Source of the DNA: an uncultured Planctomycetaceae bacterium
Lineage (GTDB): Bacteria; Planctomycetota; Planctomycetia; Isosphaerales; Isosphaeraceae
Direction: 5' to 3'
Assembly: GCA_963833985.1 (NCBI GenBank)
Contig: CAWIAD010000002.1
Coordinates: 5,856,001 to 5,920,000 of the forward strand
DNA: 64,000 nucleotides
Below the pieces are notes generated by a model. That model was not told the origin of the DNA and did not search any database. It saw only the letters and a program-made list of their open reading frames with translations. Of the stretch, positions 17,159 to 58,233 are shown one piece after another (positions within the stretch are counted from its first letter, which is position 1; each line of letters begins with the position of its first letter). Position numbers and translations under genes: made by a program.

Positions 17159-17247
17159 GCCTCCCAGGCGCGCACCATGGTCCCACTATGCTTTCATGAC
17201 GGACGGATCGAGAAAGGTTACAGCGGATTCCTCACGAGGCACTGGAA

Positions 17248-22572: not shown

Positions 22573-22668
22573 TCGCTTTCCACCCGCAGAAGATGCTCGT
22601 CGCCGATTTTGATCCGCCGATTTATAGAGGTTGTCACGGTCCCTTCACCCGACTTGTGAGGAGATGTG

Positions 22669-24984: not shown

Positions 24985-24986
24985 CG

Positions 24987-26759: not shown

Positions 26760-26956
26760 TTAGAAAAGGTAGGGCGCGATGTCCAGCTCATCGCAAAGAT
26801 CGGAGACGGGAACCATTTCGAGAGGGTAGCGTTTCAGAATGGCGGCTATCTTCTCTGGGCCTGAAAAGTGCCGACGCGTCCGGTTCATGAGAAGCCTCCG
26901 TCCAGGTCATGCTGACCCAAAGGGCAGCTTCTTCCTGATTCAGCAGAGGCAAAACA
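26760..26956 (-). pseudogene. IS3-family left end with truncated OrfA
   Basis: End TGTTTTGCCTC at 26956; manual translation 26888->26760 gives MNRTRRHFSGPEKIAAILKRYPLEMVPVSDLCDELDIAPYLF* (HTH_Tnp_1-like). Confidence 0.65.
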
Positions 26957-26974
26957 GGTTGCGGCTACGCCGCG

Positions 26975-27684: not shown

Positions 27685-27753
27685 GGCAAGCCTCACGCGG
27701 TAGTGGGTCGCGGTCACGCGATTCCGGATGTACACGAACCTCGATCTGCCCCG

Positions 27754-28800: not shown

Positions 28801-28857
28801 TTCGCGGCCTCGAAAACAACATCCACGCAGCAATGAGGATCGATCCCTCGGAAGGCC

Positions 28858-30027: not shown

Positions 30028-30031
30028 CTTC

Positions 30032-31188: not shown

Positions 31189-31213
31189 GAAGATGGTGCC
31201 CCACGAAACGGGA

Positions 31214-32371
31214 TCAGGACATGCCCAGCTCTTGCAGGAGCCGAGTCAGAACTTTATCGGAATCGAAGTATGCCTCGGCCAGGGCCCGGGCCGCCCGCGC
31301 ATGCCGGTCGGCATGTCGAGTGATCTCCTCCACGCCCGCGACAGCCTCATCGAGAGTCGAAAAAGTGATCAGCCCCTCGCCCGTCGGGAAGTGTTGCGAA
31401 AAACCGGTCTCCTGAGCCAGCACGGGCTTGCCGCTCGCCAGGTAGCAGAGGCTCCGATCGCTCATCCAACCGCCGCGACTCCGCACGTAGAGATCTTTTG
31501 CGACAGAGAACTCGGCAAGCGAGCGACCAATGTAATTTCGATAGGCGAGCACATCGCCGGCGACGATCCGCGGATCCCTCAGTGTCCATCCGTTGCCGGA
31601 CAGGAGTGCCAGGTCCCTTGTCTCGGCCGGGTGAATGGCGAGCGCAAGCTCGAACGGGCGGCCGGTGAGCCCGGGCAGGGCCACGAACCGGCGGAACTGG
31701 TGCACGCGAAGCCCATAAGAATTCCCCTGGAACTCCACGGGCCCGTAGGCCCCGCGCCAGCTCGCGATCGTGGTGAACGACTCGCCGGCCACCTCGGAGC
31801 GAGGCCACCACTCAAGCACGACCGGCTGGGGGGTGACGATCCAGTCCAGTCCGCAGGTCGGGATCTGGCAGTCCGGCCGGCCGATATTCAGGCCGATGGT
31901 CACGTGGGCATTGTGGCCCGCGAATGGGCGATGCAAACCCAGCGTATCCCAGAACTGGCCGAAGCCCGGGTCGATGTCGAGGAAGACTCGCTTCGAGGCA
32001 TGGCCAAGGATTTCTTCATCCCGGAGATAGCCCATGATATTCAGGAGCGCGGCGGACTGTCCCACGCGCTCGAGGAGCTGTGGTCGGGGAATGCCGATCA
32101 GGCTGTCGCCATCCGGACCGGTCAGGACGTAATCATCCTCCAGCCCGAAGACCCGCACGACGTCCCGCACGTATCGAAGGTTGCCCGAAACATCGAATGC
32201 ACAATTCGCTCCGCTCTCGTCGCCGCACCGGGCAGGTTCAAGAGAATCGATGAAGAGCGTCCTCCAGCCGAGTCGCCGGAAACCGAGCAGATACTGGAGC
32301 AGCGCCCAGGTGTGGCCCGCGATTCCGGGCTTCTGCGCCAGTGCACCGGCAATCACGAGGGAGTGGGGCAT
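31214..32371 (-). CDS. GT-B-like glycosyltransferase (paralog 2)
   Basis: AGHTWALLQYLLGF, DIDPGFGQ, AEFSVAK, GWMSDRSLCYLASGKPVLAQETGF. Confidence 0.82.
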   Translation of the reverse strand: MPHSLVIAGALAQKPGIAGHTWALLQYLLGFRRLGWRTLFIDSLEPARCGDESGANCAFDVSGNLRYVRDVVRVFGLEDDYVLTGPDGDSLIGIPRPQLLERVGQSAALLNIMGYLRDEEILGHASKRVFLDIDPGFGQFWDTLGLHRPFAGHNAHVTIGLNIGRPDCQIPTCGLDWIVTPQPVVLEWWPRSEVAGESFTTIASWRGAYGPVEFQGNSYGLRVHQFRRFVALPGLTGRPFELALAIHPAETRDLALLSGNGWTLRDPRIVAGDVLAYRNYIGRSLAEFSVAKDLYVRSRGGWMSDRSLCYLASGKPVLAQETGFSQHFPTGEGLITFSTLDEAVAGVEEITRHADRHARAARALAEAYFDSDKVLTRLLQELGMS

Positions 32372-33210
32372 TATTCGTCCGACGCCGATGTGAAATCCTC
32401 GATCCCTGGGGCGGGTTGTGTCACCCTGGTGTGATCACCCGCACGAAGGAGCCACGATTCGGGGACTGCGCCGCTGGTCTCGGCCGATTCTTCTGGACGC
32501 ATCTCTTCAGGAGGTTCGCGAGGAGCCACTTTCCTCAGGATGGCGATCACCTCCGAGCCGTTCCGACCAAAACTTTCGATGTGGAACGGTGAGCCCAGGT
32601 AGAGATTGACGTCTTCAAGAAACGACCGCCAATGACTTTCATCCCAGACATGAAAATGAATGCTGTAATTTATGGACATCAAGTGCTGGACACGGTGCTC
32701 AATTGCTTCGGGCTCGGACACCTTGTCCGTCAGGGTCACCCATTCGTAGAAGTGCTCCAGGCGGGATGCCATCGGGCCCTCGCGGTCGTCCCGGACGAGG
32801 TGTTCGAAGGCGGTGATCGGCCGATCACGATCGAAGCAATCCCACTTGTCCGGCACGGCGTAGAAGAGCACGCCGCCGTCCCGAAGCTTGCGGAGGTGGT
32901 TGCGAATGGTCCCGATCGGGTTCTCGGTGTGCTCGAGCAGATGATTGGCGATGATGAAATCCAGCTCGCCATCCTCGATCGAGGCGAGGACCTCGGCGTC
33001 GTCGATCAAGTCGATGGGGACGATTTCGACACCGTCGAGTTCGGGATAATGCCGGCGCAATCCCGCGACATCCATGCGATCGACGTATCGCACCGTGGCC
33101 CTCTCGCTGGTCGAGAGAGGCTCGTGGAGTGCACCAAGTTCAACGCCGGATCCCGCGAGGTATCGTTCGCTCAGTTCGCGCCTCGTGGTCCGCATCTGCT
33201 CCGGTAGCAT
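32371..33210 (-). CDS. Class I SAM-dependent methyltransferase
   Basis: GVELGALHEP, YVD, LDFIIANHLLEH, LRDGGVLFYAVPD; RBS GGAGG before ATG 33210. Confidence 0.8.
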   Translation of the reverse strand: MLPEQMRTTRRELSERYLAGSGVELGALHEPLSTSERATVRYVDRMDVAGLRRHYPELDGVEIVPIDLIDDAEVLASIEDGELDFIIANHLLEHTENPIGTIRNHLRKLRDGGVLFYAVPDKWDCFDRDRPITAFEHLVRDDREGPMASRLEHFYEWVTLTDKVSEPEAIEHRVQHLMSINYSIHFHVWDESHWRSFLEDVNLYLGSPFHIESFGRNGSEVIAILRKVAPREPPEEMRPEESAETSGAVPESWLLRAGDHTRVTQPAPGIEDFTSASDE

Positions 33211-33362
33211 TTCGCCTCCAATCGCTGTGAGAGCGGACACCGCCAGCGAGAGCTCCCGGTTCGCGGGAGGCGACTCGGTCGATCGCCGAGAACCGTCGCT
33301 CCCGGCGGGCGGAACAAGATGCCGTTGATCAACGACCTCGGAACGCGTGCTTATGATTCATT

Positions 33363-34600
33363 CTAGCCGAGATCCTCGAGTTCGAACAAACGCCGGGTAC
33401 CGCTCAGGTCGACGTTGGTACCGGCAATCCGGATCGCGACGAGGTGCTTGCGCCCATCCCTCAATTCCGTGGGGATCGGATAGACGAAGCCGTGTCGCCC
33501 GTCTCCCTTGCCGGCCCGCAGCAGGTCCGGGCGGAGGCGATCGGCTGCCACGGTCGCGAGCGGGCGGTCCCCGTCGAAAATAGTGACCTCGAGGGGAATG
33601 TTGGGCCGGCCGGCATCCCAGGCCCAGCCCATGATCGTCCGGCCATCATCGGGATCGTGGACACCCTCGTAGACCGGCGACGCCGCCGGGCGCAGGCCGG
33701 CTCGATAATACGGGACAGCCACGGAATGAGCTCGTGCAGCAACTTGTAGGATTGGAGGCCGACGGATGTGCGTCGGCCGACGATCCCCAGGCAGCCCCCG
33801 ACGAAAGCGGCCGTGTAATCCGGGTCCTGTTCCCGGAGGATCGAGGCAATGACGCCTGCTGGTCCCTTCCGCTCGACAATCTTCCCGTCCCGGATGTAAC
33901 CCGGCAGGAACTCGTGCGAGAAGATCACCCCTCTGGGATCGAGAAAGGGCAGGCAGGGTTTGAGTAAGTCCTTGCTGGACGACACGAGGTCGACGTCCAT
34001 CCACAACAGCGCCAGTTGGCGGTCCCAACCCCTGAGGGTGTTCGCGTACCAACCTTCGACGAACTCAACGCGGTCCATCTCGCCAAAGGTGCGAAGATTC
34101 TGCTCGACTTCCGGCCGCGAGCCGGCGAAGTCACCGACCTGATAGGACTTCCCCTTGCCCACGTCGTCATCGTCGGGCGGCAGCCCGGCGAAGGAGTCCG
34201 CAATCACGAAGGAGTAGCCCAGTCGTCGGCACGCACGCGACAAGCAGCAGCTCGAGTACCCCTTGAAGCAGCCGCACTCCAGAACGTGACCCTTCACACC
34301 GTGGCTCTGAAGGATGAACAGTTGATTGGCAATCGCCAGCATTTCCTCTGGGGTCGTGGCGACGCAGAGGCTGTCCTTTACGCCCCCCCGCGACGATCTC
34401 ACCCGCGGGAACAGCGAGCGAATCACCCCGAACGCCGCGTATTCGATGGCGAGGAAGGCGAGCCATTCGCGCACGCACTGATGATCCAACCCCTCCGGGG
34501 ACATCAACCAGGCCGCCGTCGCGGCGATGTCCCGCCCCTCCCACCCCGATGATCGTCCGCGGATCACGGCGGCAACAGGTCGAGGAACAAGATCAAGCAT
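33363..34600 (-). pseudogene. TylF/MycF-like O-methyltransferase with C-terminal Ig-like domain, frameshift at ~33690
   Basis: VLECGCFKGYS, DSFAGLP, VEGWY..TL, LLWMDVD in ORF 33461..34600; IMGWAWD...ADRLRPDL..AGKGDGRHGF in ORF 33363..34052. Confidence 0.78.
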
Positions 34601-34792: not shown

Positions 34793-37700
34793 TCATTCTC
34801 GCCAGGCGTGATCGCCAGGCGTGGTGGAAAGCTGGAAGATCTGGCAACTCGGGTCGCTACAGATGCAAGGGTAGTGCAATTCCAGATACTTTCGGAAATC
34901 TCCGTAGAAGCCCAGCCACCAGAACGCTGTACTGGGGAACAGCAGGTAATCCGCTCCCTTGCGCCGTACGTCCTCGAGGTGGGCAATCGCCTGCCAGCTA
35001 TCGGCCGGATGATAGCCTGCGTAGACACCGGCTATGGTCTGGGGGAAATGCCACCCTTGCCGAGGACCCAGCTCCAGCAACATGTCGTCGCCTCGACTGA
35101 CCACGACGACAACCGAGCCCGTCGGCAGCTCCGCGTCGACGACTTCACGGATCCGGCGGCGGACCTGAGGGTAACTGGTCCGTTTGGGACGATACCCGTT
35201 GACCCGTTCGGGGGCGGTGACGGCGTGCAGCGACGCAGTTGAAAGCGGCCCCGCACGATCGCGGTTCGCGGGCGGGGCGTCCCGCTCAGGGGATGGTCGC
35301 GCGGTCTGTTGTTCAAGCCGGGCGGAGAGGTCATTGAATCGCTCACTTTGTCGCCCTTCCCCATCCTGGATTTGCCTTCCGAGCTGGAAGGTCCTTATCA
35401 CCGATTCAATGTGAGCCTCCGGCGAGATGGCCGGGGGAGAATCAGCGGCCTGTTCCGGAGCGACCTGGCCCTTCGGCCCCAGGGTCGGGGCCACTTCCAT
35501 CTGCGGCACGTTGCGCACGGTGGGAAGTCCGCCTTCGATCAGGCCGAGCCGTTTCGCGATGGTCGGGGCATTGAAGTTCAGCGAGTAGTCTTCGGCATCG
35601 CGGGTCAGGTTGGGGTTGTAGAAGGGGTCGTGGCGGATCACAGCGGCCCAGCGGCGGCGCATGTAGTCCTCCTCGCCGGGATTGGAGTGCATGGTCCGCG
35701 TGGCCGACTCGTGGTGGAAGAGGACGGCGTGCGGCGTGTAGACGACCCAGTAGCCGCGCTCGCGGATCCGCAGGCACATGTCCACGTCGTTGAAGGCGAC
35801 GGCGAGGTTGCGCGTGTCGAGCCCGCCGACCTCGTCGAAGACCGACCGCCTCATCATGGCGCAGGCGAAGGTGACGGCGCTACAGTTGCGGATGCAGCGA
35901 GCGAGAGCGAAGTACCCGGGATCGTCCTCGGAAAGATGCCTGAAGGCGTGCCCGCAGCTCTTGTCAGGCCCCATGATGACGCCGGCGTGCTGGATGCTCC
36001 GGTCGGGGTAGAGGAGCTGGGCGCCGACGACGCCGACCTCGGGCCGCTGGGCATGCTCGAGCATCGCCTCGACCCAATCGGGGGTGATCACGGTGATGTC
36101 GTCGTTGAGCAGGACAACGTACGGGGTGTCGACCTGGGACACGGCGGAGTTGTTGACAGCCGCGTAGTTGAACGGCTTGAGCCGGAAGCGCCGGTACCGC
36201 AACCGCGGGTCCCGCCTGGCCAGGGCGCGGCAATGGTCGGCGACCTCCGTGCCGTCGGAGTCGTCGGTGACCAGGACGCGAAGGTTCGGGTAGGTCGATC
36301 GCTCCAGGACGCTCCCCAGGCACGGCCGGAGGAACTCCATGTTGCCGCCGGTCGGGATCACCAGGGTGACGGCCGGCTGGCCGCGCAGGTCATAGCGAAC
36401 GCGCCAGCGGCCCGGGACGCAGCCGGGTTCGACGTGCCCCGCCACCCCGCGCCTCCGCAGCGCGTCGTCGATGGCGCGGTGCGCGGCGTCCGTGGCATAC
36501 GGCTTCGCCGTGCTGTCACGAGCGGTCGAGCCCGGGATCGCGCGCGAGGAGTAGAGGATGCTGGGGATATGGACGATCCGGTCGGTCTGCTCGGTGATAC
36601 GCAGGACCAGGTCCCAGTCCTGGCTCCCGTCATACTCGGGGCGAAAGCGACCAACGGCCTCGACCAGCGATCGCCGGTAGACGCCGAAGTGGCAGATATA
36701 GTTGCAGGAAAACAGCAGGTCAGGGGACCAATCGGGCTTGAAGAATGGGGCCCATCGATCCCTGCCCGTGTCGTCCACGAAGTCCTCGTCCGAGTAGATG
36801 AGGTCGATCTCCGGAGCGTCGTTGAGGGCACGGGCCACCTCGAAGAGGGCGTGCGGCATCAGGAGATCATCGGAGTCCAGCAGCCCGATGAACTCCCCCG
36901 TGGCGAGGGCCAACGCGGCGTTGCTGTGGCCGGCGATCCCCAGGTTCTGGGCCAGATGAACAACCTTGACGCGCGCGTCTTGCTCGGCCAGCCGGTCGAG
37001 GAAAGGCCGCACGTGGGGGGCCGTGGAACCGCCATTGGCCAGGCAGAGTTCCCACCGGCCGTAGGTCTGGGCCATGACCGAGTTCGCCATCGGGCCCAGA
37101 TAGTCCTCCGGCGTGTTGTAGACGGGGACCACCAGACTGATGACGGGCTGGTAAGGGAGGTCCATTGCAGCGATCCGCATCCTGGCCAGGTCGGATTCGG
37201 TCGGCATCCGCTCGGCCAGCCAGTCCGGGTATTCCGCATTGAGATCCGCTCGATTGGGTCCGGCAAGGGGGTCGAGCCGGAATGAGCGGTTTAGCTCGAG
37301 CTGACCGCCGTCGCGGCCCCGGACGCGGACGACCAGCGAGTGCTCGCCCTCCGCCAGGCCCTCGAGGTCGATCTTGCCGACGAAGCCGGAGCGATCGGCA
37401 TCCGGGAAGTCGGGATGTGACGCCTCGACGTCGAGACGCGTGGCGCCGTAGACGACCCCCTCGCGCGGGAGGCCGTCGACGACGAGCGTGACCTCCGCGA
37501 CGCCAGCCTTCGAGAGGGCCCAGCCCCTGACCCGCAGGTGGCCGGGGCCGACGGTCACCAGGTGTGGCCCGGGCGTGTCGCAAACCGCCAGGATGGAGTC
37601 GGGCTCCGGGTATTCCGCATTGAGATCCGCTCGATTGGGTCCGGCAAGGGGGTCGAGCCGGAAAGAGCGGTTCAGCTCGAGCTGGCCGCCGTCGCGGCCC

Positions 37701-38743
37701 CGGACGCGGACGACCAGCGAATGCTCGCCCTCCGCCAGGCCTTCGAGGTCGACCTTGCCGACGAAGCCGGAGCGATCGGCATCCGGAAAGTCGGGATGTG
37801 ACGCCTCGACGTCGAGGCGCGTGGCGCCGTAGACGACCCCCTCGCGCGGGAGGCCGTCGACGAGGAGCGTGACCTCCGCGACGCCAGCCTTCGAGAGGGC
37901 CCAGCCCCTGACCCGCAGGTGGCCGGGACCGACGGTCACCAGGTGTGGCCCGGGCGTGTCGCAAACCGCCACGATGGAGCCGGGCTCCGGGCCGGGTGGT
38001 TCCGGCACCGCCTCTGTCGGCAGCAAGGCGCCCGGCTCCTGGGGCGACGAGGCAGGCTGCTCGTCGGCCCCGGCCGGCGCCCGATCCAGATCGCGCAGCA
38101 GGTTGGAGATGGGCCGCATCCTCTGGGCCATCGCCTGGATCAATCGCCGATGCCGGTCCAGGCCATGCCGCTCGGCGAGCGAGGCGCGCTCCTCCAGCCG
38201 GGCCAGGGCCGCCTCCCAGGCAGCGCGGTCGGCCTCCAGCGCCCGGTGCAGCTCGGCGCGTAACTCGGCGGCGAGCTGCTCGTGGGCCGCGGCCATCTGA
38301 TCCTGAAGCTCGGCGAGCGGCCCGCGCTGGGGGTTGTGCTCGGCGATCGCCGCAGGTTGCGGGCGATCCGCCGGGGAAGAGCACTTGTCCTGCCCGTCCA
38401 GGGCGGCCCGGAACTCGGCCCGCGCGGCGGTCCGGGCCTCGAGCGGGACCTGGTCGTGGCCACTCGACCGGCGGTCGTCCCGGCTTGGGGGCTGGTCCCA
38501 TCCGGCTGGGGTCAATAGCCTGGGTTCGGCGGCCGGCGGGTCGGACGGCTCGCGTAGACCCGCTCGGGGCGGGCGCGTGCCCTCGCGCCGGGGGTGGCCC
38601 ATAACCATCGACTGGCCACCGACCTCCGGTCGCGGTTCGATCGATGAACGGGGCGCGAGCGGGCCGGTGAGGATACCGTTGTCGTGCCCGGGCGTAACCA
38701 GGACGACAGAGTTTTCCGGGGGGTTGCGAGCTTCATCGGTCAT
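34793..38743 (-). CDS. Multidomain glycosyltransferase: two Ig-like domains + two GT2 domains + C-terminal conserved unknown domain
   Basis: ISLVVPVYNTP, LLDSDD, YSDED, FKPDWSPD, GSQDWD; second GT2 LLNDD, SAVTFAC, NDVDMCLR, DPFYNPNL; RBS GGAGG before ATG 38743. Confidence 0.9.
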   Translation of the reverse strand: MTDEARNPPENSVVLVTPGHDNGILTGPLAPRSSIEPRPEVGGQSMVMGHPRREGTRPPRAGLREPSDPPAAEPRLLTPAGWDQPPSRDDRRSSGHDQVPLEARTAARAEFRAALDGQDKCSSPADRPQPAAIAEHNPQRGPLAELQDQMAAAHEQLAAELRAELHRALEADRAAWEAALARLEERASLAERHGLDRHRRLIQAMAQRMRPISNLLRDLDRAPAGADEQPASSPQEPGALLPTEAVPEPPGPEPGSIVAVCDTPGPHLVTVGPGHLRVRGWALSKAGVAEVTLLVDGLPREGVVYGATRLDVEASHPDFPDADRSGFVGKVDLEGLAEGEHSLVVRVRGRDGGQLELNRSFRLDPLAGPNRADLNAEYPEPDSILAVCDTPGPHLVTVGPGHLRVRGWALSKAGVAEVTLVVDGLPREGVVYGATRLDVEASHPDFPDADRSGFVGKIDLEGLAEGEHSLVVRVRGRDGGQLELNRSFRLDPLAGPNRADLNAEYPDWLAERMPTESDLARMRIAAMDLPYQPVISLVVPVYNTPEDYLGPMANSVMAQTYGRWELCLANGGSTAPHVRPFLDRLAEQDARVKVVHLAQNLGIAGHSNAALALATGEFIGLLDSDDLLMPHALFEVARALNDAPEIDLIYSDEDFVDDTGRDRWAPFFKPDWSPDLLFSCNYICHFGVYRRSLVEAVGRFRPEYDGSQDWDLVLRITEQTDRIVHIPSILYSSRAIPGSTARDSTAKPYATDAAHRAIDDALRRRGVAGHVEPGCVPGRWRVRYDLRGQPAVTLVIPTGGNMEFLRPCLGSVLERSTYPNLRVLVTDDSDGTEVADHCRALARRDPRLRYRRFRLKPFNYAAVNNSAVSQVDTPYVVLLNDDITVITPDWVEAMLEHAQRPEVGVVGAQLLYPDRSIQHAGVIMGPDKSCGHAFRHLSEDDPGYFALARCIRNCSAVTFACAMMRRSVFDEVGGLDTRNLAVAFNDVDMCLRIRERGYWVVYTPHAVLFHHESATRTMHSNPGEEDYMRRRWAAVIRHDPFYNPNLTRDAEDYSLNFNAPTIAKRLGLIEGGLPTVRNVPQMEVAPTLGPKGQVAPEQAADSPPAISPEAHIESVIRTFQLGRQIQDGEGRQSERFNDLSARLEQQTARPSPERDAPPANRDRAGPLSTASLHAVTAPERVNGYRPKRTSYPQVRRRIREVVDAELPTGSVVVVVSRGDDMLLELGPRQGWHFPQTIAGVYAGYHPADSWQAIAHLEDVRRKGADYLLFPSTAFWWLGFYGDFRKYLELHYPCICSDPSCQIFQLSTTPGDHAWRE

Positions 38744-41162
38744 CGCCGAGCCTCCCATTGGATCCAGGCGCCAGGCCAAGCCGTTTCGCGATGGTCGGGG
38801 CATTGAAGTTCAGCGAGTAGTCTTCGGCATCGCGGGTCAGGTTGGGGTTGTAGAAGGGGTCGTGGCGGATCACAGCGGCCCAGCGGCGGCGCATGTAGTC
38901 CTCCTCGCCGGGATTGGAGTGCATGGTGCGCGTGGCCGACTCGTGGTGGAAGAGGACGGCGTGCGGCGTGTAGACGACCCAGTAGCCGCGCTCGCGGATC
39001 CGCAGGCACATGTCCACGTCGTTGAAGGCGACGGCGAGGTTGCGCGTGTCGAGTCCGCCGACCTCGTCGAAGACCGACCGCCTCATCATGGCACAGGCAA
39101 AGGTGACGGCGCTGCAATTGCGGAGGGAACGAGCGAGAGCGAAGTACCCGGGATCGTCCTCGGAGAAATACTTGAAGGCATGTCCACAATTCTCGCACGT
39201 CCCCATGATCACGCCGGCGTGCTGGAGGCTCCGGTCGGGGTAGAGGAGCTGGGCGCCGACGACGCCGACCTCGGGCCGCTGGGCATGTTCGAGCATCGCC
39301 TCGACCCAGTCGGGCGTGATCACCGTGATGTCGTCATTGAGCAGGACGAGGTATGGGGTATCGACCTGGGCCACGGCGGAGTTGTTGACGGCGGCGTAGT
39401 TGAACGGCTTGAGCCGGAATCGCCGGTACCGCAACCGCGGGTCCCGCCTGGCCAGGGCGCGGCAATGGTCGGCGACCTCCGTGCCGTCGGAGTCATCGGT
39501 GACCAGGACACAAAGGTTCGGGTAGGTCGACCGCTCCAGCACGCTCCCCAGGCACGCTCGGAGGCATTTCATGTTGCCGCCGGCGGCGATCACCAGGGTG
39601 ACCGCCGGCTGGCCGCGGAGGTCATAGCGCACGCGCCAGCGTCCCGGGACGCAGCCGGGTTCGACGTGCCCCGCCACCCCGCGCCGCCGCAGCGCGTCGT
39701 CGATGGCGCGGCGCGCGGCGTCCGCGGCATACGGCTTGGCCATGTCGTCGCCCGCGGTCGAGCCCGGGATCACGCGCCAGGAGTAGAGGATGCTGGGGAT
39801 ATGGACGATCCGGTCGGTCTGCTCGGTGACACGCAGGACCAGGTCGTAGTCCTGGCTGCCGTCATACTCGGGACGAAAGCGGCCGATGGCCTCGACCAGC
39901 GATCGCCGGTAGACGCCGAAGTGGCAGATATAGTTCATCGAGAAGAGCAGGTCGGGGGACCAATCCGGCTTGAAGAAGGCGTCCCAGCGGTCGCTTCCTG
40001 TCTCGTCGATCTTATCTTCGTCCGAGTAGACCAGGTCGGTTTGCGGTGCGTCGTTGAGAGCGCGGGCCACCTCGAAGAGGGCGTGCGGCATCAGGAGATC
40101 GTCAGAGTCCAGAAGCCCGATGAACTCACCCGTGGCGAGGGCCAGCGCGGCGTTGCTGTGGCCGGCGATGCCCAGGTTCTGGGGCAGATGGACCACCTTG
40201 ACGCGTGGGTCCTGCTTGGCCAGGCGGTCCAGGAAAGGCCGCACGTGGGGGGCCGTGGAACCGCCATTGGCCAGGCAGAGTTCCCACCGGCCGTAGGTCT
40301 GTGCCATGACCGAGTTCGCCATCGGGCGCAGATAGTCCTCGGGCGTGTTGTGGACGGGGACAACCAGGCTGATGAGGGGCTGGTAAGGGAGGTCCATTGC
40401 AGCGATCCGCATTCTGGCCAGGTCGGACTCGGACGGCATCCGCTCGGCCAGCCAGTCCCGGTATTCCGCATTGAGAAGCCTTCGATCGAGCCTGGCAAAG
40501 GGGTCGAGTCGGAACGAGCGGTTCAGCTCCAGCTCGCCGCCGTCGCGGCCCCGGACGCGGACGACCAGCGAGTGCTCGCCCTCCGTCAGGCCCTCGAGGT
40601 CGATCTTGCCGACGAAGCCGGAGCGATCGGCATCCGGGAAGTCGGGATGCGCCGCCTCGACGTCGAGGCGCACGGCGCCGTACACGACCCCCTCGCGGGG
40701 GAGGCCATCCACGAGGACCACGACCTCCGCGACACCGACCTTCGACAGGGCCCAGCCCCTGACCCGCAGGTGGCCGGGGCCGACGGTCACCGGATACGGC
40801 CCAGGCATGTCGCAAACCGCCAGGATGGAGCCGGGCTCCGGGGCGGGTGGGGCCGCCGCCGTGATTGATCGGCAGGCGCCTGGCTCCAGGAGCGCCGGCG
40901 CCAGCGATTCATCGAGCCCAGTCGATGCTCGATCCAGATCGCGCTGCAGGTCGGCGATCGGTTGCTCCATCTGGGCCATTGCCTGGATCAATTGCCGATG
41001 CCGGTCCAGGCCTTGCCGGTCGGCGAGCGAGGCGCGGTCATCGTGTCGGGCCAGGGCAGTCTCCCAGCTCGCGCGGTTCGCCTCCAGCGCCCGGTGCAAC
41101 TCACTGCGTAACTCGACGGCGAGCTGCTCGTTGGCCCTGGCCATCCGATCCTGAAGTTCGGT
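35540..41162 (-). repeat. Long paralogous duplication: ~35540-38312 vs ~38772-41162
   Basis: Ig + GT2-GT2 module is highly similar at DNA level; stretches near the 3' ends (e.g. 35548-35820 vs 38780-39050) are almost identical. Confidence 0.9.
37224..37991 (-). repeat. In-frame 381-bp tandem duplication of an Ig-like domain
   Basis: Two near-identical 127-aa units; TCCGGG at 37224, 37605 and 37986 marks the junctions. Confidence 0.9.
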
Positions 41163-43680
41163 GTACTGCCCTCTGTGGAAGTGGATGTCGCCGATCGGCG
41201 AGTGCTGGCGGTACTGTTCCAGGAAGAGGGGCTCTTCCTGCTCCGCCAGGAGGGTCTGGAGCATCGGCCTCGCCTCGGTGGTTTCCCGCGGCCCGAGCTC
41301 GGGTTGTCGCGACTGGTCCGTTCCGGCGAGTTCATAGATCTGGCAATCCGCGCTCTTCCAGATCTGCTGATAATGAGTGTCGAGGTGGCGTGCGAGATCC
41401 CCGTAATGTTCGAGCCACCAGAACGCCGTACTGGGGATGACGAAGAAATGGGCTCCTCGGGCCCTGAGCGTTTCGAGATGAGCGATGGCCTCGCCGCTCT
41501 CCGCGGGGTAATGGCCGGCGTAGTGGCCCCGATCGTCCTGCGGGAAATGCCAGACGTCTCGCCCTTCGACATCGAGCAAGTCAGGGTCTCCCTTGCTGAC
41601 CACGATGACCCGGGCGGCCGGCGGGAGGAGACGGCGCATGTCTGCCCGGACCCGTCGAGTCATCCCCTGGTAATCGACGGTCTCGCTCAGGCGAGAGACC
41701 ATGGTCTTGATCTCGTCTTGCCGCGCGGAGAGCTGATCTCGAATCTGGAGCATCGCGGTCTCGCGACTCTCCTCGTGCGATCCCATATGGGCAAACCCGG
41801 CCACGAGCCCGCTCATCTGCCCGGCGAGCCCGCTCATCTGCCCGCCGAACCCGGCCATTCCCGCTTCGAGGCGGCTGCCTGTCTCGTTGATATGCTGGAT
41901 CCCATCGCTGGCGCTTGCCCAGCACGCCGCGAATCGTTCCGTCAACCGGGATTCCAAAGAGGTCACGACGGCCGCGCGCTCGTCCAGCCCGGCACGGGAG
42001 CTCACTTGCCAGGACCTGGGCCCGGTCTCGCTCTTCGGCCAGCCGTCGGTTGTCCACTTCCGATTCATACAATCGGTCCCGAATCGAGTCCATCTCCGCC
42101 TGGCGAGCGGCTCGATCCGTCTCCAGTTGCGGGACCAGGGCCGCGCGCTCCGCCAGCGTGGCGATCTCCGCGTCACGAGCGGCCAGTGCCTGCGCCTGCT
42201 CCTGGCATACCGCCGCGCGCCCCTCCAGCTCAGCGCGGAGCTCGCTCGCCAACGTGGAGGCCCGGTCTCGCTCCTCGGCTAGCCGTCGATAGTCCGCTTC
42301 CGATTCGGCAAAGCGGATCTGAATCGACTCCATTTCGACCTGGCGAGCGGCTCGATCCGTCTCCAGTTGCTGGACCAGGGCCGCGCGCTCGGCCAGCGTG
42401 GCAATCTCCGCGTCGCGCCCTGCGATTGCCTGCGCCTGCTCCTGGCATACCGCGTCGCGCTCAGCCAGCCCGGCGCGGAGTTGACTCACCAACGTCGATG
42501 CCTCGTCCCGCTCCTCAGTCAGCCGTCGGTTGTCGGCCTCCAGCTCTTGCGATCGACCCTGGATCGCCGAGTGCACCGCCTCCCTGGCGTCCGCCTGCAT
42601 TTCCATGTCCGCAAGCCGAACTTGAAGCGCCTGGGCTTCCGCGGAAATCTCGAAGAGCCGCGACTCCAGTCCCGACCGGCTAAGGGCCATCTCATCGCGA
42701 TCCTGCTGGGCCCGACGCGAGGAACGGCTGAAGGTGTCCCAGATCTGCTCACCGACCGGGTCGCGTTCCGGAGTATCGGACAGACCATGGCGCGGATCTC
42801 TGCTCCTGGTCGCGACGCGTAGCGCGAAGTACAGGGCCTTGGCGGGGAAGAGGATGTTCGGGTTATCCAGCGTATTGATCAAGGAGGTCCGCTGGCGATG
42901 GAGTTCGGGCCCGACGAACTCCTCGATCGCCGCCCGGACAGCAGGTTGTTCAAGTGCATCGGAGCGGCCGAGGAATCGCGCGAGCCGTGACACCTCCTCG
43001 CGATGCGAATGAATCACATCCTCATAAAAGAGGAAGTGCCGTGGGAGGCCGGTGGTCTGCTCGATCGCCGCTCCCGTGTAGATCTGCCACAATCGGATCG
43101 ACTTCTCAACCGAGGAACCATCTCGCGTCTCGAGCGACGCCGCGACCTCCGCCGGGCTGCGCATGCAGATCACATACTGAATCGGCGGCAGGATCTGTTT
43201 CCAGAATGGGAGAGTCAAACAGGTGCGTGGGTCCTTCCAGCCCCAATCACCCGAGGCGAATGTGCGAGCAATGAGATCCCTCGCCCTCCGGCGAAGATCG
43301 GCAAGTTCGGCGGCAGTCTCCCACCCGGGCGGCAAGGGCGGGGGTTCGGCGAAGCTGCCGCCCAGCCGTCCGAGGATCTCGTCATTGAGTTCGAGGATCG
43401 GCCGGTACTCCCAGTATCCCGTGGGATTGTCGGGTTGAGGAATCAGGAGCTGTTCCTCGGCCCCCAGACTGATTCCCAGCAGGTTCATCAGGCGAGCCGC
43501 CACCGAAGTTCCGCTACGATGCATCCCGAGTACACAGACGATACACCGTTTCGGCGAATGAATGAATTGATGTGCATCCATTAGATGCGCCAATTCTCCG
43601 TTCGTCGTTTGCGGTACGACCGGCCATCCCGCAAGTTCAGGAGCAGATGATTTCGACACGCTCATGATGTTTGAACTCAA
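38733..43680 (-). pseudogene. Giant sulfotransferase - coiled coil - unknown domain - Ig - GT2 - GT2 protein (~1650 aa), split by a +1 insertion at ~41997
   Basis: PAPS-loop LGMHRSGTS, WGWKDPR, RSPAEVAASL, YED in ORF 41581..43680; GT2 pair in ORF 38733..42176. Removing one C restores ELRAGLDERAAV, matching the repeat units QLRAGLAERDAV and ELRAELEGRAAV. Confidence 0.85.
41975..42545 (-). repeat. 240-bp (80-aa) tandem repeat encoding coiled coil, ~2.4 copies
   Basis: CTCCAGTTGC.GGACCAGGGCCGCGCGCTC at 42121 and 42361; protein unit EADNRRL.EERD.ASTL.S.LRA...VCQEQAQA.A.RDAEIATLAERAALV.QLETDRAARQ. Confidence 0.88.
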
Positions 43681-43692: not shown

Positions 43693-45090
43693 TCAATCGT
43701 CTCGTGAAGGATGCGGCAGGCGGATGATCAGGCATCGATTGCGATCGCGGTGCACCTCCTCGCCGACGTTCGCGAGGTAGTCTCCGAACCCGGCATAGTG
43801 CTCGAGCCACCAGAGCGCAGGGCCGGGAATGAGGAGATATCCAACACCCCGTTGCTGCAACGCCTTCAAGTGATCGATGGCGTCGTCGCTGCCGGCCGGA
43901 TGGTAGCCGGCATAGGAGCCATGTTCGTTCTGAGGGAAGTGCTGAGCGTCCATCCCCTCGATATCGAGCAGGTCGGGATCCCCTTTGCTGATGACGAGCA
44001 CCCTCGCACCGGCGGGGATGACCATCCGGACAGCCTCCTTGATCCCGGTGATCAGCCGACGTTTCGCTGGACCCGGACGATGCCGATGGGGCTGCCACTC
44101 GACGCCCCACTTGCGCTCGAATCGTTCACGATTGGCCTTCAGCAACTCCTGCGCCTCTCCGGATGTCAGCAAGCTTCCCAGCGACACGCCCCCGAAGTGG
44201 TGGACGAAGACATCTTCCGCGCAAATCAGGCGATACCCTCCCGACCGGAGACGCACCGCATAATCGTCATCCTCGAACATGCCGATGAGGTACCGCTCGT
44301 CGAGCGGACCGACTCGCTCGTGGGTTTCGCGCCGGAACGCGAAGCAGAACATGACGAGCATCGGGATTTCGAAACGCTCTCCCGCATGCTCGCGGGTGTA
44401 CTCGCTGGCAAACTGCTCGAACTCGGCGTAAGTGCGATAGGAGGTCGCGATCCAGGCCTCGTTGCTGATCCGGTTCGTCACCGGTCCGACCGCTCCGATC
44501 AGCGGGTCGTCGAGGTGCCGGATCAGCCGCGTGAGCCAACCCTGTGGCACGATCGTGTCATTATTGAGCAGGACGAATCGGTCTCCCGTCGCCAGCGCGA
44601 GCCCCTGGTTATTCGCTGCCGCGAACCCCCGGTTGGTCTGGTTGTGCACGACCCGGATGAACGGGTAGCGATCTGTCAGCTGGTCAAGATAGGACAGCAG
44701 CTTTTCTCCCGAGCCATTGTCAACGACGATCAACTCGAAGTCGGGATAATCGGTGTTCGCGAGCACGCTCTCCAGGCAGAGCTTGGTGAAGAGGAGGTGA
44801 TCTCGAGCGATTACGACGATGCTGACGCGGGGAAATGAATCCCGTGCGGCTGGATCGAGGGGCTCGGGGATCTCGAGCCCAGAGGCCCGCGCCACGCCCG
44901 CCGGGAGATCGAGCACCGTGCGCACCGTCCTTTCCGGCAGCACCGTCGGTTTTCGGGAGATCGGCTCGAGGACCAAGTCGGGCGGCAAGAAGCTCGGACG
45001 CCCGGAACTCGACAGCATGCTGCTGGGCGTCCCGTGAGCCTCGTGCGGCGTCCTCTCCAGGCGGTCGTGTTTCCGCATTCTCACCATCAT
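43693..45090 (-). CDS. GT2 glycosyltransferase with C-terminal conserved unknown domain
   Basis: VSIVVI, IVVDNGS, NRGFAAANNQG, LLNNDT, GMFEDDDY, FVHHFGG. Confidence 0.9.
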   Translation of the reverse strand: MMVRMRKHDRLERTPHEAHGTPSSMLSSSGRPSFLPPDLVLEPISRKPTVLPERTVRTVLDLPAGVARASGLEIPEPLDPAARDSFPRVSIVVIARDHLLFTKLCLESVLANTDYPDFELIVVDNGSGEKLLSYLDQLTDRYPFIRVVHNQTNRGFAAANNQGLALATGDRFVLLNNDTIVPQGWLTRLIRHLDDPLIGAVGPVTNRISNEAWIATSYRTYAEFEQFASEYTREHAGERFEIPMLVMFCFAFRRETHERVGPLDERYLIGMFEDDDYAVRLRSGGYRLICAEDVFVHHFGGVSLGSLLTSGEAQELLKANRERFERKWGVEWQPHRHRPGPAKRRLITGIKEAVRMVIPAGARVLVISKGDPDLLDIEGMDAQHFPQNEHGSYAGYHPAGSDDAIDHLKALQQRGVGYLLIPGPALWWLEHYAGFGDYLANVGEEVHRDRNRCLIIRLPHPSRDD

Positions 45091-45113: not shown

Positions 45114-46892
45114 TCAGGCACGCCGGACCGATTTCGAGGTTTGCGTCTCGTAGAGCTGGAAATAGAGGCCGCCTCGCTCGAGGAGTTCCGAATGGGTTCC
45201 GGATTCGACGATCCGCCCATGGTTCATGACCAGGATCTGATCCGCGTTCCGGATGGTGGAGAGGCGGTGTGCCACCATGAAGGTCGTCCGTCCCTCCATG
45301 AGGCGATCGAGCGCATCGAGGATGACGGCTTCGGTCTTCGAATCGATCGAGGAGGTCGGCTCATCCAGAAGCAAGATCGGAGCGTCCTTGAGGAAGGCGC
45401 GGGCGACCGCGATCCGCTGGCGCTCGCCGCCAGACAGCTTGGCCCCGCGCTCGCCAACCACCGTCTCGTACTGCTCGGGGAGGCCCATGATGAAGTCGTG
45501 AGCGTTTGCCGCCCTGGCGGCCTCGACGATCTCGTCCATGGGCGCTTCGAGTCGACCGTAGCGGATATTGTTGGAGATGGTGTCGGAGAACAGCAGGGGC
45601 TCCTGCTGGACGAGGCTGACGTTCTGGCGAAGCGATTTGAGCGTCACCTTGCGAATGTCGATGCCGTCAATCTCGATGCGCCCGCGGCACGGGTCGTAGA
45701 ACCGGGGGATCAGGCTGATCAAGGTCGTCTTGCCGGCTCCGGTGGGGCCGACGAGGGCGATCTGCTGGCCGGGCCGCACATCGAGGTTGATGCCCTTGAG
45801 CGTCTCGGCGCGCCCGGTGTAGGTGAAATGGACGTTCTTGAAGGTGACGCGCCCCCAGGAACGGACGAGGCTGTGCGCCCCCTTCACGTCCTGGATGTCG
45901 GGCTCGTTGTCGAGGAGGTCAAACGTGAACTGGAGGCTGACGATCTGATCCTGGAGCGCACCGATCGTGGTGCTGATTGCCTCGAGTGGTTTGTAGACGG
46001 CCGCCACATAGGTCATCACGACGAGCAACTGGCCGATCGAGAGCCGGCCTTGCAGGGCGTGGTAGGCCCCGTAACCCAGCACGAGCGCAGTGCCGACCGC
46101 GGTCGTCATGTTCACGCCAAGCGAGAACATCGTCTGCTGCACGGTCAGTTTCACACGGGCGTCGACCGCCTGCACGGCCTGCTCGCGGAATCGAAGGTAC
46201 TCATACCCCTCACGGCAGAACGCCACGGTCACTCGGAGCATCGACAACGCTTCGTGGACGATCGCGAGAGATTCACCCTCCAGCCCTTTGACGTGCAGCA
46301 ACCGGGGCTGGATGTACTTGATGTAGTAGCCGACCGACAGGTAGAGCAGTGGGACCACTGACATCGACAGCAGGGCCAGTCGCGCATCGATGAGCAGCGT
46401 GATCCAGAACATCCCGACCAGCGTCAGTGCACTCTGGGCCAACGGCGGGACGGCCATGATCAGCCCCGGGCCCGCGCCGCACTGGTAATTGACCACGTAG
46501 ATCAGCATTCCCGATCGCCGCTGATCGTGGTAGGCCATCGATAGCCGCTGGGCATGCCGGTACAGGTCGCCGCGGAAGTCGAGGCCTATGCCCAGGTTGA
46601 GCTTGGTGTTCACGAAGTTCTCGAGGACATGCAGCGCATTGACCATGAGCGCCACGATCAGGCCGCCAAGGATGACCAGGATCAGCAGGACCGTGCGGTC
46701 GCCCCCACCGCCGTCGAGGCTGGCGAGGAGCGAAGGCATCGGCTGGCCGCCCAGCACGTTATCGACCAGCAACTTGAGCGGCCAGGGCATGAGGAGGCTG
46801 GCCGCGGCGCTGGCAATGGTGATGATCACCGAGCCGATGGCCAGCTTCCAGTACGGTCGCAGGTAAGGCAGCATTCTCCAGAAGTACGTCAT
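45114..46892 (-). CDS. ABC exporter, fused TMD-NBD (MsbA/PglK-like)
   Basis: TM region, Walker A GPTGAGKT, signature LSGGERQR, LLLDEPTSSID, AHRLSTI. Start may lie up to 46997. Confidence 0.93.
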   Translation of the reverse strand: MTYFWRMLPYLRPYWKLAIGSVIITIASAAASLLMPWPLKLLVDNVLGGQPMPSLLASLDGGGGDRTVLLILVILGGLIVALMVNALHVLENFVNTKLNLGIGLDFRGDLYRHAQRLSMAYHDQRRSGMLIYVVNYQCGAGPGLIMAVPPLAQSALTLVGMFWITLLIDARLALLSMSVVPLLYLSVGYYIKYIQPRLLHVKGLEGESLAIVHEALSMLRVTVAFCREGYEYLRFREQAVQAVDARVKLTVQQTMFSLGVNMTTAVGTALVLGYGAYHALQGRLSIGQLLVVMTYVAAVYKPLEAISTTIGALQDQIVSLQFTFDLLDNEPDIQDVKGAHSLVRSWGRVTFKNVHFTYTGRAETLKGINLDVRPGQQIALVGPTGAGKTTLISLIPRFYDPCRGRIEIDGIDIRKVTLKSLRQNVSLVQQEPLLFSDTISNNIRYGRLEAPMDEIVEAARAANAHDFIMGLPEQYETVVGERGAKLSGGERQRIAVARAFLKDAPILLLDEPTSSIDSKTEAVILDALDRLMEGRTTFMVAHRLSTIRNADQILVMNHGRIVESGTHSELLERGGLYFQLYETQTSKSVRRA

Positions 46893-46965
46893 GATCCCTC
46901 GCGGCAAGCGGCCGGGCTCTTTCGTCGCGGGGACGAGATCGTCATGAGGACCGGTCGTACTTCGT

Positions 46966-47415
46966 TCATCGTAAGCCTTTCCTGCGCAGGAGATCACGTG
47001 GCGAATAGACGCCGGCCGGCTTGTCGCGAGTGACCTTGACCGTCGCCAGTTGCGTCACGTGCTCGGTGCCGGCGTAGAGGCGGAACTCGTACTTGTCCTT
47101 GCTGTTGATGGTGGCCTCCTGGTGCGAGGGGTTGGACGAGAACAGCCGTTCCGGCCCGCCACCGACCGAGACATACACCTGACCAGGCGCCCCGTCTCCG
47201 GTGTGCCAGTTCACGATCGTCTTGCCGGGCCCGCGTCCCGCGGGAACTGGATTTGGTATCGCGATGATCCAGGCTTCGGTAGGCCCCTCGTAGGGCACGT
47301 AATCGGTCGGGATCGGCGACTTCCAGGAGCAACCGGCGCCGGCCGAGAGGGCTGCCAGGATGAGGCATCGGAGAATCCCGGCAACGACCGGCTGGTTCTT
47401 GAGCTGCAAGAGCAT
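46966..47415 (-). CDS. Small putative lipoprotein, beta-rich
   Basis: Hydrophobic stretch ending LSAGAGC; PNPVPAG.G.GKT.V.W...YEFRLY. Confidence 0.65.
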   Translation of the reverse strand: MLLQLKNQPVVAGILRCLILAALSAGAGCSWKSPIPTDYVPYEGPTEAWIIAIPNPVPAGRGPGKTIVNWHTGDGAPGQVYVSVGGGPERLFSSNPSHQEATINSKDKYEFRLYAGTEHVTQLATVKVTRDKPAGVYSPRDLLRRKGLR

Positions 47416-47449: not shown

Positions 47450-48565
47450 TCAAAAGGAGTCGGCGGAGACGACCTCGCCCCCCGCCTTCGTCCCGAGCGA
47501 CCACCACACCATGCGATCGATCCCCTCCTTGACGAAGCGTACGCTGCCGTCGGCGAACAGCACGTTGACGCCGCCCGGGTGATTGCTCGAGGCGCCGAAG
47601 ACGAAGCCGTTGTCCATGTTCCAGTCCGGCATGCCGTTGAACCGGCAGCCGCCGAAGGCATACGCGCGATCGTTGGGTACCTGAATGGTGTTGAACATCG
47701 AGAACCCGGTCACCCCCTGACCCCACCTCCAGCCGCGGTGGTCGGCGATGTAATTGGTCGACTGGAACGCGGTGGCACACGCATCGAGCCCGGCCATGAC
47801 GCCAGCCTTGCCCTGGAAGGCGTCGACCCTTTGTGAGCCCGGTGGAGCGCTCACGGCCGCCGACATGAAGACGTTGCCGCGGTACCGGCTCGGGTTCGTG
47901 ATGTTGTGGCCGATGCGCCCATAGCCCATGCCGTCGCCTACCAGCGCCTCGGCGAAGGCAACCGTGCCGGAAGTGCCGTCGCGGCAGCTCGAGATCGTGA
48001 ACGACTGCTGGACGGTGAACAGGCCCGTGCATCCCCCGGTTTGTGGATAGTTGTCATTGGTGGTCGTGCCGTACGATCCGTGGTAGCTGCACGTATTCTG
48101 CTCTCCCGCCCGCGCGTCGGACGGGCAGAGGAACAGGGCGACGACCGCAAGATTCACCGTCAGGTTCATGGGGTGGGACACGCCGTCTCGGATCTCGGGA
48201 GCGAAGTCGAAGTTGATCGCGTTGAACATCGCCGTCTGCTCCAGCCCCGGCAGGATCGCCGCGTGGGCACTCCAGACGGACCATTGATCGTAACTGTCCC
48301 CGTCCAGCTTTCGATTGTTCTTCGAGCCACCCATCGGGAAGACGCTCAAACTCTGTTGATAATTGTGCAGCGCCATCCCGATCTGCTTCAGGTTGTTGGC
48401 GCACTGCAACCTCCTTGCGGCATCGCGTCCCGATTGCACCGCGGGCAGGAGCAGCGCAACCAGGACCCCGATGATCGCGAAGACCGCCAGCAGCTCGATC
48501 AGGGTGAAGCCGCCGGGAGTCCGCGAATGCACTCTTCTGCGGCGCGGAAGTATTCCATGGTTCAT
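47450..48565 (-). CDS. DUF1559 prepilin-like protein (N-terminal methylation site, H-X9-DG motif)
   Basis: GFTLIELL..IIGVLVALLLPAVQ..R.AARR.QC.NNLKQIG.ALHNY, FLCPSD, HPGGVNVLFADGSV. Confidence 0.95.
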   Translation of the reverse strand: MNHGILPRRRRVHSRTPGGFTLIELLAVFAIIGVLVALLLPAVQSGRDAARRLQCANNLKQIGMALHNYQQSLSVFPMGGSKNNRKLDGDSYDQWSVWSAHAAILPGLEQTAMFNAINFDFAPEIRDGVSHPMNLTVNLAVVALFLCPSDARAGEQNTCSYHGSYGTTTNDNYPQTGGCTGLFTVQQSFTISSCRDGTSGTVAFAEALVGDGMGYGRIGHNITNPSRYRGNVFMSAAVSAPPGSQRVDAFQGKAGVMAGLDACATAFQSTNYIADHRGWRWGQGVTGFSMFNTIQVPNDRAYAFGGCRFNGMPDWNMDNGFVFGASSNHPGGVNVLFADGSVRFVKEGIDRMVWWSLGTKAGGEVVSADSF

Positions 48566-48571
48566 GGCTCG

Positions 48572-49750
48572 CTAATGCTCCCCGAGTTCGTCCAGAAGGC
48601 GGGAGAGGACGACGTCCGAATCGAAGTATTCGCGGGCGAGCTCGTCAGCAGCGCGGCTGTGGGCCGCGTAGTCCGAGTTGATCGCCTCGATGGCCTCTAC
48701 GGCCTCCTCAATGTCCGAGAATGCGAACAGCCCCTCCCCCGTCGGAAGAAGGTCGCTGAAGCCGGTATCCTGAGTAACCACCGGACGGCCGGCCGCCAGG
48801 TAGGTCGCGCTGCGATCACTGAACCAGCCACTGCGGAGTCGAACGTTTTGATCCTTGGCGACGGTGAACTCGCCTCGAGACGAGGCGATGTAATCACGAT
48901 ATTCGTCCAGATCCGTGGAAAAGTCCAGCGCGTGTCTCACGTTCCAGCCCTTGCTCTCGAGCATCTGCCGGTCCGACTCATCGTACTTGCTGAGAGCCAG
49001 TTCGAATCGCTGTTCGACGCGGGAAGGGAGATCAAGAAACTTGAGGAACTCCTGGTGCTTGCTCCAGGTGTAACGCTCGCCCCCGAAGACGAGCTCGCGC
49101 TGCCGTTGCCGCCAGTTGCCAATGGTCGTGAACATGGGACCGGGAGGCCTGGCCTCCTCGCGCCAGAATTCGAGCACTACGGGTTGCCGCGTAGGCCGAA
49201 ACTCGTAGCGGTCGGATACCGGCAGGAGGCATCTGGTCCGGCCGTAATTCTCCCCGAAGGTAAAAAAAGCGCAGTGCGAATCCAGAAACTCGATCGTCTG
49301 CGGATTGTCTTCGGACAGCTCGATCTGGACCTGAACGGGATCCGTCTCCAGAAAGACCAGCCGGTTGGTCGCGCAATGCTCTGGCAATGGCAGAGTTCCG
49401 CCATGGAGGTTGATGATCCACCGGGTCGAATCGTACAGATGTGAGAGTTGCGCAGTGCTCAGGCCGTAGCTCCGGTGGTCGGCGTGCAACGCGTGGAACG
49501 CCCAGCGGTCACCGAGATCGAATCGACGCAGGACGCCCGCGAGGAAGGCCGCGACCTTGTCCGAGCCGTCGTGGTCCGTGGAGTCCAGGAACATCGTGGG
49601 CGTGGTCGCGTGCGCCTCGACATAGTAGACCTCGTAGCCGAGCCGCTGGAAGCCCAGCAGGTAATGCACCGTCTGCCAGATGACGCCGGCGACCGGCATC
49701 CTGGCCATCATGCCGAGCAAGACGATCTTCTTCTGGCGGAGGAGGTTCAA
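48572..49750 (-). CDS. GT-B-like glycosyltransferase (paralog 1)
   Basis: AGVIWQTVHYLLGF, LETDPVQVQ, GEFTVAKDQN, GWFSDRSATYLAAGRPVVTQDTGF. Confidence 0.82.
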   Translation of the reverse strand: MNLLRQKKIVLLGMMARMPVAGVIWQTVHYLLGFQRLGYEVYYVEAHATTPTMFLDSTDHDGSDKVAAFLAGVLRRFDLGDRWAFHALHADHRSYGLSTAQLSHLYDSTRWIINLHGGTLPLPEHCATNRLVFLETDPVQVQIELSEDNPQTIEFLDSHCAFFTFGENYGRTRCLLPVSDRYEFRPTRQPVVLEFWREEARPPGPMFTTIGNWRQRQRELVFGGERYTWSKHQEFLKFLDLPSRVEQRFELALSKYDESDRQMLESKGWNVRHALDFSTDLDEYRDYIASSRGEFTVAKDQNVRLRSGWFSDRSATYLAAGRPVVTQDTGFSDLLPTGEGLFAFSDIEEAVEAIEAINSDYAAHSRAADELAREYFDSDVVLSRLLDELGEH

Positions 49751-58166: not shown

Positions 58167-58233
58167 CAAGGGAGCATGCTGGAAGTGGGGATCAGTACAC
58201 GTCCGAGGGGGTCAGAATTAGTGTCGCCTGACA

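Follow-up and report, generated by a model that had tools for sequence, protein, structure and literature searches.

A candidate sulfate-capping polymerase with a coiled-coil ruler encoded by one fused gene in a planctomycete glycan operon

In two described glycan assemblies that resemble the one reported here, Klebsiella pneumoniae O12 WbbB and Escherichia coli O9a WbdD/WbdA, a terminator lies at the far end of a coiled coil and the polymerase lies at its base or is recruited to it (PMC11231755, PMC3482155). The caps named for such ruler assemblies are methyl, methyl-phosphate and Kdo (3-deoxy-D-manno-octulosonic acid), and an extended coil is described as the characteristic marker of this termination strategy (PMC11231755). 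We analyzed 64,000 nucleotides (the window) from an uncultured Planctomycetaceae bacterium of the Isosphaeraceae (assembly GCA_963833985.1, contig CAWIAD010000002.1, positions 5,856,001 to 5,920,000), in which one gene (38733-43665, on the minus strand, as are all of its domains and the operon genes located below) joins an N-terminal sulfotransferase, a long coiled coil, a domain without a Pfam family (here called DUF), an immunoglobulin (Ig)-like domain and two GT2 glycosyltransferase domains. Bacteria terminate surface sugar chains and gauge their length with proteins of this layout, a modifying enzyme joined by a rod to sugar-adding enzymes, so sulfate would be the likely stop cap. By analogy with those systems we give a probability of roughly 55% to the reading that the product is a polymerase, ruler and terminator in one chain that ends each glycan with a sulfate cap.

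In the present assembly the gene appears as two overlapping open reading frames (ORFs), 41581-43680 (699 aa) and 38733-42176 (1147 aa), which are a single gene split by one surplus base. A preliminary description of this DNA had put an extra base near 41997 and read the whole as one protein of about 1650 aa with LGMHRSGTS and KDPR motifs, and both motifs, the coordinates and the length proved right. At a point where the first two copies of a 240-nt repeat show one codon, copy 3 has four bases, which puts the surplus base within the G run at 41996-41998; the guanine plus cytosine pattern by codon position changes frame at the same site, and a single-frame ORF of another genome bridges the break, with residues 2-561 aligned in one window frame and 505-1259 in the next. 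Read through with an X at the break the protein has 1648 aa, and the homologues suggest that it starts at the ATG at 43665, giving 1643 aa. One homologue, P0004, aligns to residues 27-1648 at 74.8% identity, and in genome G057 the gene runs in one frame over residues 1-1636 (70% identity) within a syntenic operon.

The frame break is probably an assembly error, since this assembly shows about one such break per 14 kb and relatives have the gene intact. For this rate, 350 of the 3745 long ORFs of the source genome (G000; 10.16 Mb in 2 contigs) served as queries, and the resulting paralogue alignments, about 405 kb, contained 29 frame joins, true pseudogenes included. Two further genes of the same operon are frame-broken, a PF13524 gene (about 30690) and a YdjC-like gene (about 27300), and an IstB gene of the window lies in two pieces (57460-58166). 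If the break were genuine in the organism, the fused gene would be dead or would yield a truncated head-coil protein, and polymerization would fall to a headless paralogue. An intact paralogue of this kind, with a GT2 pair 92% identical to that of the fused copy, does lie directly downstream, and G062, one of four genomes in which the gene is also broken (G056, G062, G089 and G090), is broken at almost the same codon. The G062 break is, however, caused by a deletion, an indel of opposite sign; together with the genome-wide break rate and with two halves that are open apart from this break and share 67-75% identity with intact relatives, this makes a genuine break unlikely. Programmed frameshifting was also considered and ruled out: the gene is intact in G057 and in eight proteins, other genomes break elsewhere, and the opposite sign of the G062 indel speaks against a shared programmed shift. 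The architecture of the family is independent of whether the break is real.

The head (42811-43545) shows the fold and motifs of PAPS (3'-phosphoadenosine 5'-phosphosulfate)-dependent sulfotransferases, and sulfuryl transfer is predicted from these. It carries a GMHRSGTS loop, GYWE, KDPR and an R-x7-S motif for the 3'-phosphate. R10, S14, E46, K104, R129 and S137 are invariant in 10 of 10 aligned sequences, and among the 120 homologues listed the loop occurs in 111, KDPR in 118 and GxWE in 117. The model of the head (predicted local distance difference test, pLDDT, 89.5) best matches the tyrosylprotein sulfotransferases (TPST1: Z 14.4, root-mean-square deviation 3.4, 170 aligned residues); the top 12 rows of a fold search (VIA) are sulfotransferases, with the first other row at Z 10.3, and every row listed by Foldseek is a sulfotransferase (E 5e-6). 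A profile alignment to a tick TPST brings the RSGT loop, the KDP lysine and the 3'-phosphate Arg and Ser of R-x7-S into register. For human TPST2 the catalytic residues are named as Arg78, Glu99 and Lys158 (PMC10951654), and the invariant Glu of GYWE would be the catalytic base here. The genome encodes an APS (adenosine 5'-phosphosulfate) kinase for PAPS supply. The head might instead place a phosphate cap, either as a P-loop kinase or as an enzyme of different catalysis on a sulfotransferase-like fold: kinases match the fold too (Z 8.5-10.3), and the Pfam score for PF13469 (E 1.3e-5, 26 bits) falls just below the cut-off of 27. The purely sulfotransferase top rows of both structure searches and the alignment with the tick enzyme, whose human orthologue uses the three residues just named, make this very improbable. 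When the head alone was searched as a single sequence against solved structures, nothing meaningful emerged, the matches to ClpC being short and due to chance.

Behind the head lies a heptad coiled coil of about 255 aa (41952-42717; residues 322-576) with a hydrophobic period of 3.48-3.49, containing 80-residue units that are encoded by the 240-nt direct repeat. At a rise of 1.5 Å per residue it would extend about 38 nm if straight. As in the ruler systems, an extended coil here carries a modifying enzyme at its distal end. In 14 of the 15 close relatives measured, 223-456 residues separate the head from the DUF, and repeat anchors within their stalks are 77-87 residues apart, mostly 80-81. 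Among close relatives with heads that are 65-88% identical, stalk length changes in repeat units, the largest difference being 233 residues (the stalk of P0008 is short and that of P0014 long), and ruler behavior can therefore be tested with natural variants.

To survey the family, proteins of 1225-3495 aa were searched, a filter that selects for fusions; 278 matched, of which 120 were listed. The preliminary description had proposed to look for intact homologues with the same domain order, and the order sulfotransferase, coil, DUF, Ig, GT2, GT2 is intact in eight of them (P0002-4, 6-8, 13 and 14). These and the single-frame gene in the syntenic operon of G057 show that the sulfotransferase and GT2 parts are not always separate genes, one of the outcomes which that description had named as fatal to its proposal. 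Of the 120 long homologues listed, 116 have the sulfotransferase placed within their initial 60 residues, and a coil was called directly after the head in 96 by a rough caller that makes 1.0% false calls inside globular domains. Named sources among the homologues listed include Paenibacillus, Effusibacillus and Pseudomonas. Genome loci were also collected by one pattern with no length filter, and the closest named loci among the best 80 of these 176 belong to Isosphaeraceae/Planctomycetota assemblies.

The main comparative support for a terminator slot is the exchange of heads. Methyl caps placed by methyltransferase heads are established for WbdD of O5 and O8 and for WsaE, according to the published descriptions, and we read the N-terminal position as a terminator slot because methyltransferase heads, with this known cap chemistry, replace the sulfotransferase on the same chassis. 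Among proteins built on the chassis coil-Ig-GT2-GT2, P0194 and P0201 have a sulfotransferase head, P0193, P0196 and P0218 have a PF13578 methyltransferase, and 21 proteins bear the same body headed by a GT2 domain with a short coil; the dual-GT2 proteins of Sinorhizobium fredii NGR234 and Azospirillum have PF13578 heads. A quick IQ-TREE phylogeny of 71 GT2 pairs needs 11 changes of head type against a minimum of 4, and its starred branches force at least 2 changes for each methyltransferase class. That sample held 45 sulfotransferase-headed, 9 headless, 5 and 4 methyltransferase-headed and 8 of the 21 GT2-headed proteins, other heads being omitted; it is biased to sulfotransferase heads, and headless duplicates add part of the count. 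A second chassis, coil-DUF, was followed in 111 new proteins: 19 combine a methyltransferase Pfam match with a coil of at least 50 residues immediately ahead of the first DUF, and 4 are headed by a sulfotransferase. Certain coil-DUF proteins consist of head-coil-DUF-DUF with no glycosyltransferase, which is the WbdD layout. One homologue, P0133, bears both a methyltransferase and a sulfotransferase.

The two GT2 domains, both called by Pfam, lie in the same chain as the coil, the first (39690-40385) with a DXDD motif at residue 1191 and the second (38880-39614) with an NXD motif at residue 1448. The spacing of 257 residues is close to the 255 of K. pneumoniae O7 ORF6, a proven polymerase (PMC11231755), and with these ORF6-like motifs at the coil base polymerase activity is predicted. 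Over 99% of its length the GT2 pair is 42.6% identical to the dual-GT2 protein encoded beside rml and fixF in NGR234. We take the latter, from its position, to be WbgA. The tandem GT2 domains with DXDD then NXD and this full-length similarity suggest an enzyme of the dual-GT2 rhamnosyltransferase type.

The start of the headless tandem paralogue (34793-38743, 1316 aa) overlaps the stop of the fused gene, and the protein comprises a short coil, Ig, Ig, GT2, GT2 and DUF. In the GT2 tree it is sister to the fused copy both in G000 and in the contig of P0004, a placement of headless copies that suggests repeated duplication or gene conversion. Polymerase occupancy tunes the ratio of polymerase to terminator in the WbdD system (PMC11231755), and one may speculate that the headless copy tunes that ratio here.

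The DUF (41319-41681) is an alpha/beta domain of about 120 aa (model pLDDT 90.7) for which neither Pfam nor NCBIfam gave a match. Its first helix is basic and amphipathic (residues 675-692, moment 0.69, charge +5); no transmembrane segment was found in the fused protein (maximum KD19 1.39). The model weakly resembles the C-terminal soluble domain of the GT-C enzymes ALG12, DPY19, AglB, ArnT, AftD and PglB (Z 5.4-6.7), the best value of 6.7 being tied with unrelated periplasmic-binding folds at 6.2-6.5, and the best Foldseek match, E 5.9e-3, is to AglB. The domain occurs in 1846 proteins of 222-2000 aa, and nearly all annotated ones among 120 listed are glycosyl-, methyl-, sulfo- or pyruvyltransferases. 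It often occurs in 2-6 copies per protein and often directly after a coiled coil in glycan-assembly enzymes. Three genes of the operon encode it (41319-41681, 43711-44064 and 34817-35176). We consider the DUF a candidate docking or membrane module that merits a family of its own. A second short coiled coil (40926-41171), 71% shared with the headless paralogue, lies between the DUF and the Ig-like beta domain (40485-40835). The Ig-like domain of the preliminary description is a weak call, possibly a carbohydrate-binding module (CBM): homologues have Big_7 matches (P0185, E 6.9e-7; P0201, E 0.0067; L114, E 0.13), but the window copy, searched in frame, has no Pfam match.

From these parts the following mechanism can be proposed. 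At the cytoplasmic face of the membrane the two GT2 domains would extend a lipid-linked glycan, possibly rich in rhamnose, and the DUF, sitting where the coil ends, would dock the protein to the membrane or to two neighboring DUF-bearing transferases. The coil of about 38 nm would keep the sulfotransferase off until the chain has reached sufficient length; sulfate moved from PAPS onto a terminal acceptor hydroxyl would then block extension. Export might proceed through an MsbA-type transporter that has no cap-reading module, or through a Wzm/Wzt pair encoded elsewhere.

Several observations weigh against a length-setting sulfate cap. The prototypes, as described, export only capped chains and do so through a Wzt with a CBM, whereas no Wzm/Wzt with a cap-binding module is found in the locus and its exporter is of the MsbA type and lacks a CBM. 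In 10 loci a Wzt lies near a coil-bearing sulfotransferase; the Wzt tail is at most 21 aa, too short for a CBM, in 8 of them and long in the other 2. After the sulfotransferase domain there is little or no coil in 48 of the 80 unfiltered genome loci. In the operon of G123 a DUF-GT2-GT4 gene stands in place of the fused one, and the module is therefore exchangeable. The operon also holds other candidate cap enzymes, namely two methyltransferases and an APH-type kinase. As to rhamnose, the locus contains no rml genes; in the genome an rmlB match exceeds its cut-off, an RmlC-like match is over the Pfam and under the TIGR cut-off, and an RmlD-like match is under its TIGR cut-off. In Aeromonas salmonicida a sulfotransferase gene stands beside wzt, and the known O-antigen structure contains no sulfate (PMC4483657).

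The sulfotransferase might instead decorate internal sugars of the repeat unit, the coil being an oligomerization scaffold or a sweeping arm and no ruler. The capsule of Cobetia marina, exported by an ATP-binding cassette (ABC) transporter, carries Rha2S in each repeat (PMC11766843), there is no cap-reading CBM in the locus or in the 8 of 10 comparable loci, and many family members lack the coil. Internal sulfation would not, however, need a 255-residue stalk; on two chassis methyltransferase heads stand in the position that this head occupies, and the extended coil is the feature termed a marker of termination (PMC11231755). We find internal sulfation doubtful, though a real competitor to a terminal cap. 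A further alternative is that the sulfate is terminal and neither sets length nor gates export, or that it is placed on another cap or acceptor made by the operon kinase or methyltransferases. In line with this, methylation by WsaE did not depend on chain length in vitro (PMC2943079), P0133 combines a methyltransferase with a sulfotransferase, and the operon adds the methyltransferases, the APH kinase and the CBM-free MsbA-type exporter. Against it, the stalk stays long and varies by whole repeat units among close relatives, and most syntenic loci lack both the TylF-type enzyme and the second methyltransferase; such an arrangement seems quite unlikely. The reading of a chain-ending sulfate cap set by a ruler is the one that we retain.

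The operon spans 26940-52533. Upstream of the fused gene are a GT2 protein with a C-terminal DUF, a candidate adaptor transferase (43693-45090), the MsbA-type ABC half-transporter without a C-terminal carbohydrate-binding extension (45114-46997), and genes for a DUF1559 protein, a PF13524 GT-like protein and a GH2-like/GT2 fusion (47450-52533), the last three syntenic in seven loci (L032, L033, L114, L116, L118, L120 and L121). The downstream genes (26940-34600) encode the TylF-type O-methyltransferase, the second methyltransferase, three PF13524 GT-like proteins (one frame-broken), the APH-type kinase and the frame-broken YdjC-like protein. The operon is conserved, though patchily distributed in the family, and has four PF13524 GT-like genes in all, and parts of it are present in an Actinomycetota assembly (L042). 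The DUF1559 gene inside it (47450-48565) is prepilin-like and 83% conserved in G056; its product is a possible target or a passenger. The DUF marker was found in 7 of 121 genomes of the family and in 0 of 13 congeners. A scan of window ORFs found no initiating transferase, ligase or rml gene. A gene immediately upstream of the operon and on its strand encodes an Ig plus NHL-repeat surface protein (53009-54859). Mobile-element genes flank the operon at 9783-25940 and 56588-60860, with a serine recombinase, DDE transposases (a 580-aa gene twice), an integrase-core and AAA pair and an IS21-like pair.

The two Wzt_C genes of the genome are more than 1 Mb from the locus. A second locus (L016, 11537-20000; G000:C2, about 2396500-2405000) contains wzm, wzt with Wzt_C, a coil-less sulfotransferase of the same family (307 aa) and dual-GT2 matches, and is a better place for asking whether a Wzt module reads sulfate. 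A third sulfotransferase of the family, 374 aa, is encoded beside glycosyltransferase-like genes (L018, 10023-11147; G000:C1).

If the proposal is true, a sulfate cap adds a chemistry to termination and explains what a large protein family does, of which a single search gave 278 long fusions, and length would be controlled without the cap-reading checkpoint of Wzt. It is tempting to speculate further that sulfate is an additional cap class, that 80-residue cassettes set discrete chain lengths, that MsbA-type export proceeds without cap reading and that the GT-C-like domain assembles headed and headless polymerases into a single complex; taken jointly we consider these four improbable, if worth stating. 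Our literature searches, which did not cover the census of Mann et al. 2019, found no paper describing a sulfate terminator; PMC12595478 and the first 300,000 characters of PMC13721041 contained nothing that bears on it. The abstract of that census reportedly predicts new terminator chemistries, so the prediction of a sulfate terminator may already be in print. What the present locus adds is a natural series of stalk lengths, evidence of head exchange and a CBM-free context. The logic of capping and ruling is already known, the sulfate cap is putative, and the hosts here are uncultured assemblies.

Other described systems share single elements with the locus. WsaE of Geobacillus stearothermophilus joins an N-terminal capping enzyme to two rhamnosyltransferase domains, but its cap is methyl and its product, by description, an S-layer glycan (PMC2943079). 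The NGR234 protein shares the GT2 pair (42.6% identity), and its locus, described as a rhamnan locus (PMC3732241), also has an MsbA-like ABC half-transporter; the differences are a PF13578 methyltransferase head, a length of 902 aa, adjacent rml genes and only 32% identity between the two transporters. In Cobetia marina KMM 1449, whose capsule was cited above for internal sulfation, sulfotransferase genes likewise lie in a locus for an ABC-exported glycan that contains rhamnose, but that capsule is sulfated on every repeat and leaves through a Kps exporter (PMC11766843); the word "coiled" does not occur in that paper. WbbB and WbdD/WbdA differ from the window protein in their Kdo or methyl-phosphate caps, in other GT families and in Wzm/Wzt export with a cap-binding module (PMC11231755, PMC3482155). 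K. pneumoniae O7 ORF6 comes closest, likened here by its description and by motif spacing: one chain with an N-terminal modifying enzyme, a coil, two C-terminal GT2 domains with DXDD and NXD 255 residues apart (257 here) and an Ig-like fold (PMC11231755). Its head is a methyltransferase-kinase that makes a methyl-phosphate cap and its Ig fold precedes the coil (PMC11231755), whereas in the window locus a DUF follows the coil and the exporter is of the MsbA type. Of the proposal in the preliminary description, the single-chain architecture is supported and so, through the methyltransferase swaps, is the terminator slot; terminal sulfation and length control are putative, and the Wzm/Wzt exporter that reads the cap in the prototypes is missing from the locus. 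By analogy the fused protein would work like O7 ORF6 or WbbB, and the nearest relative among the known systems is O7 ORF6 rather than WbdD/WbdA.

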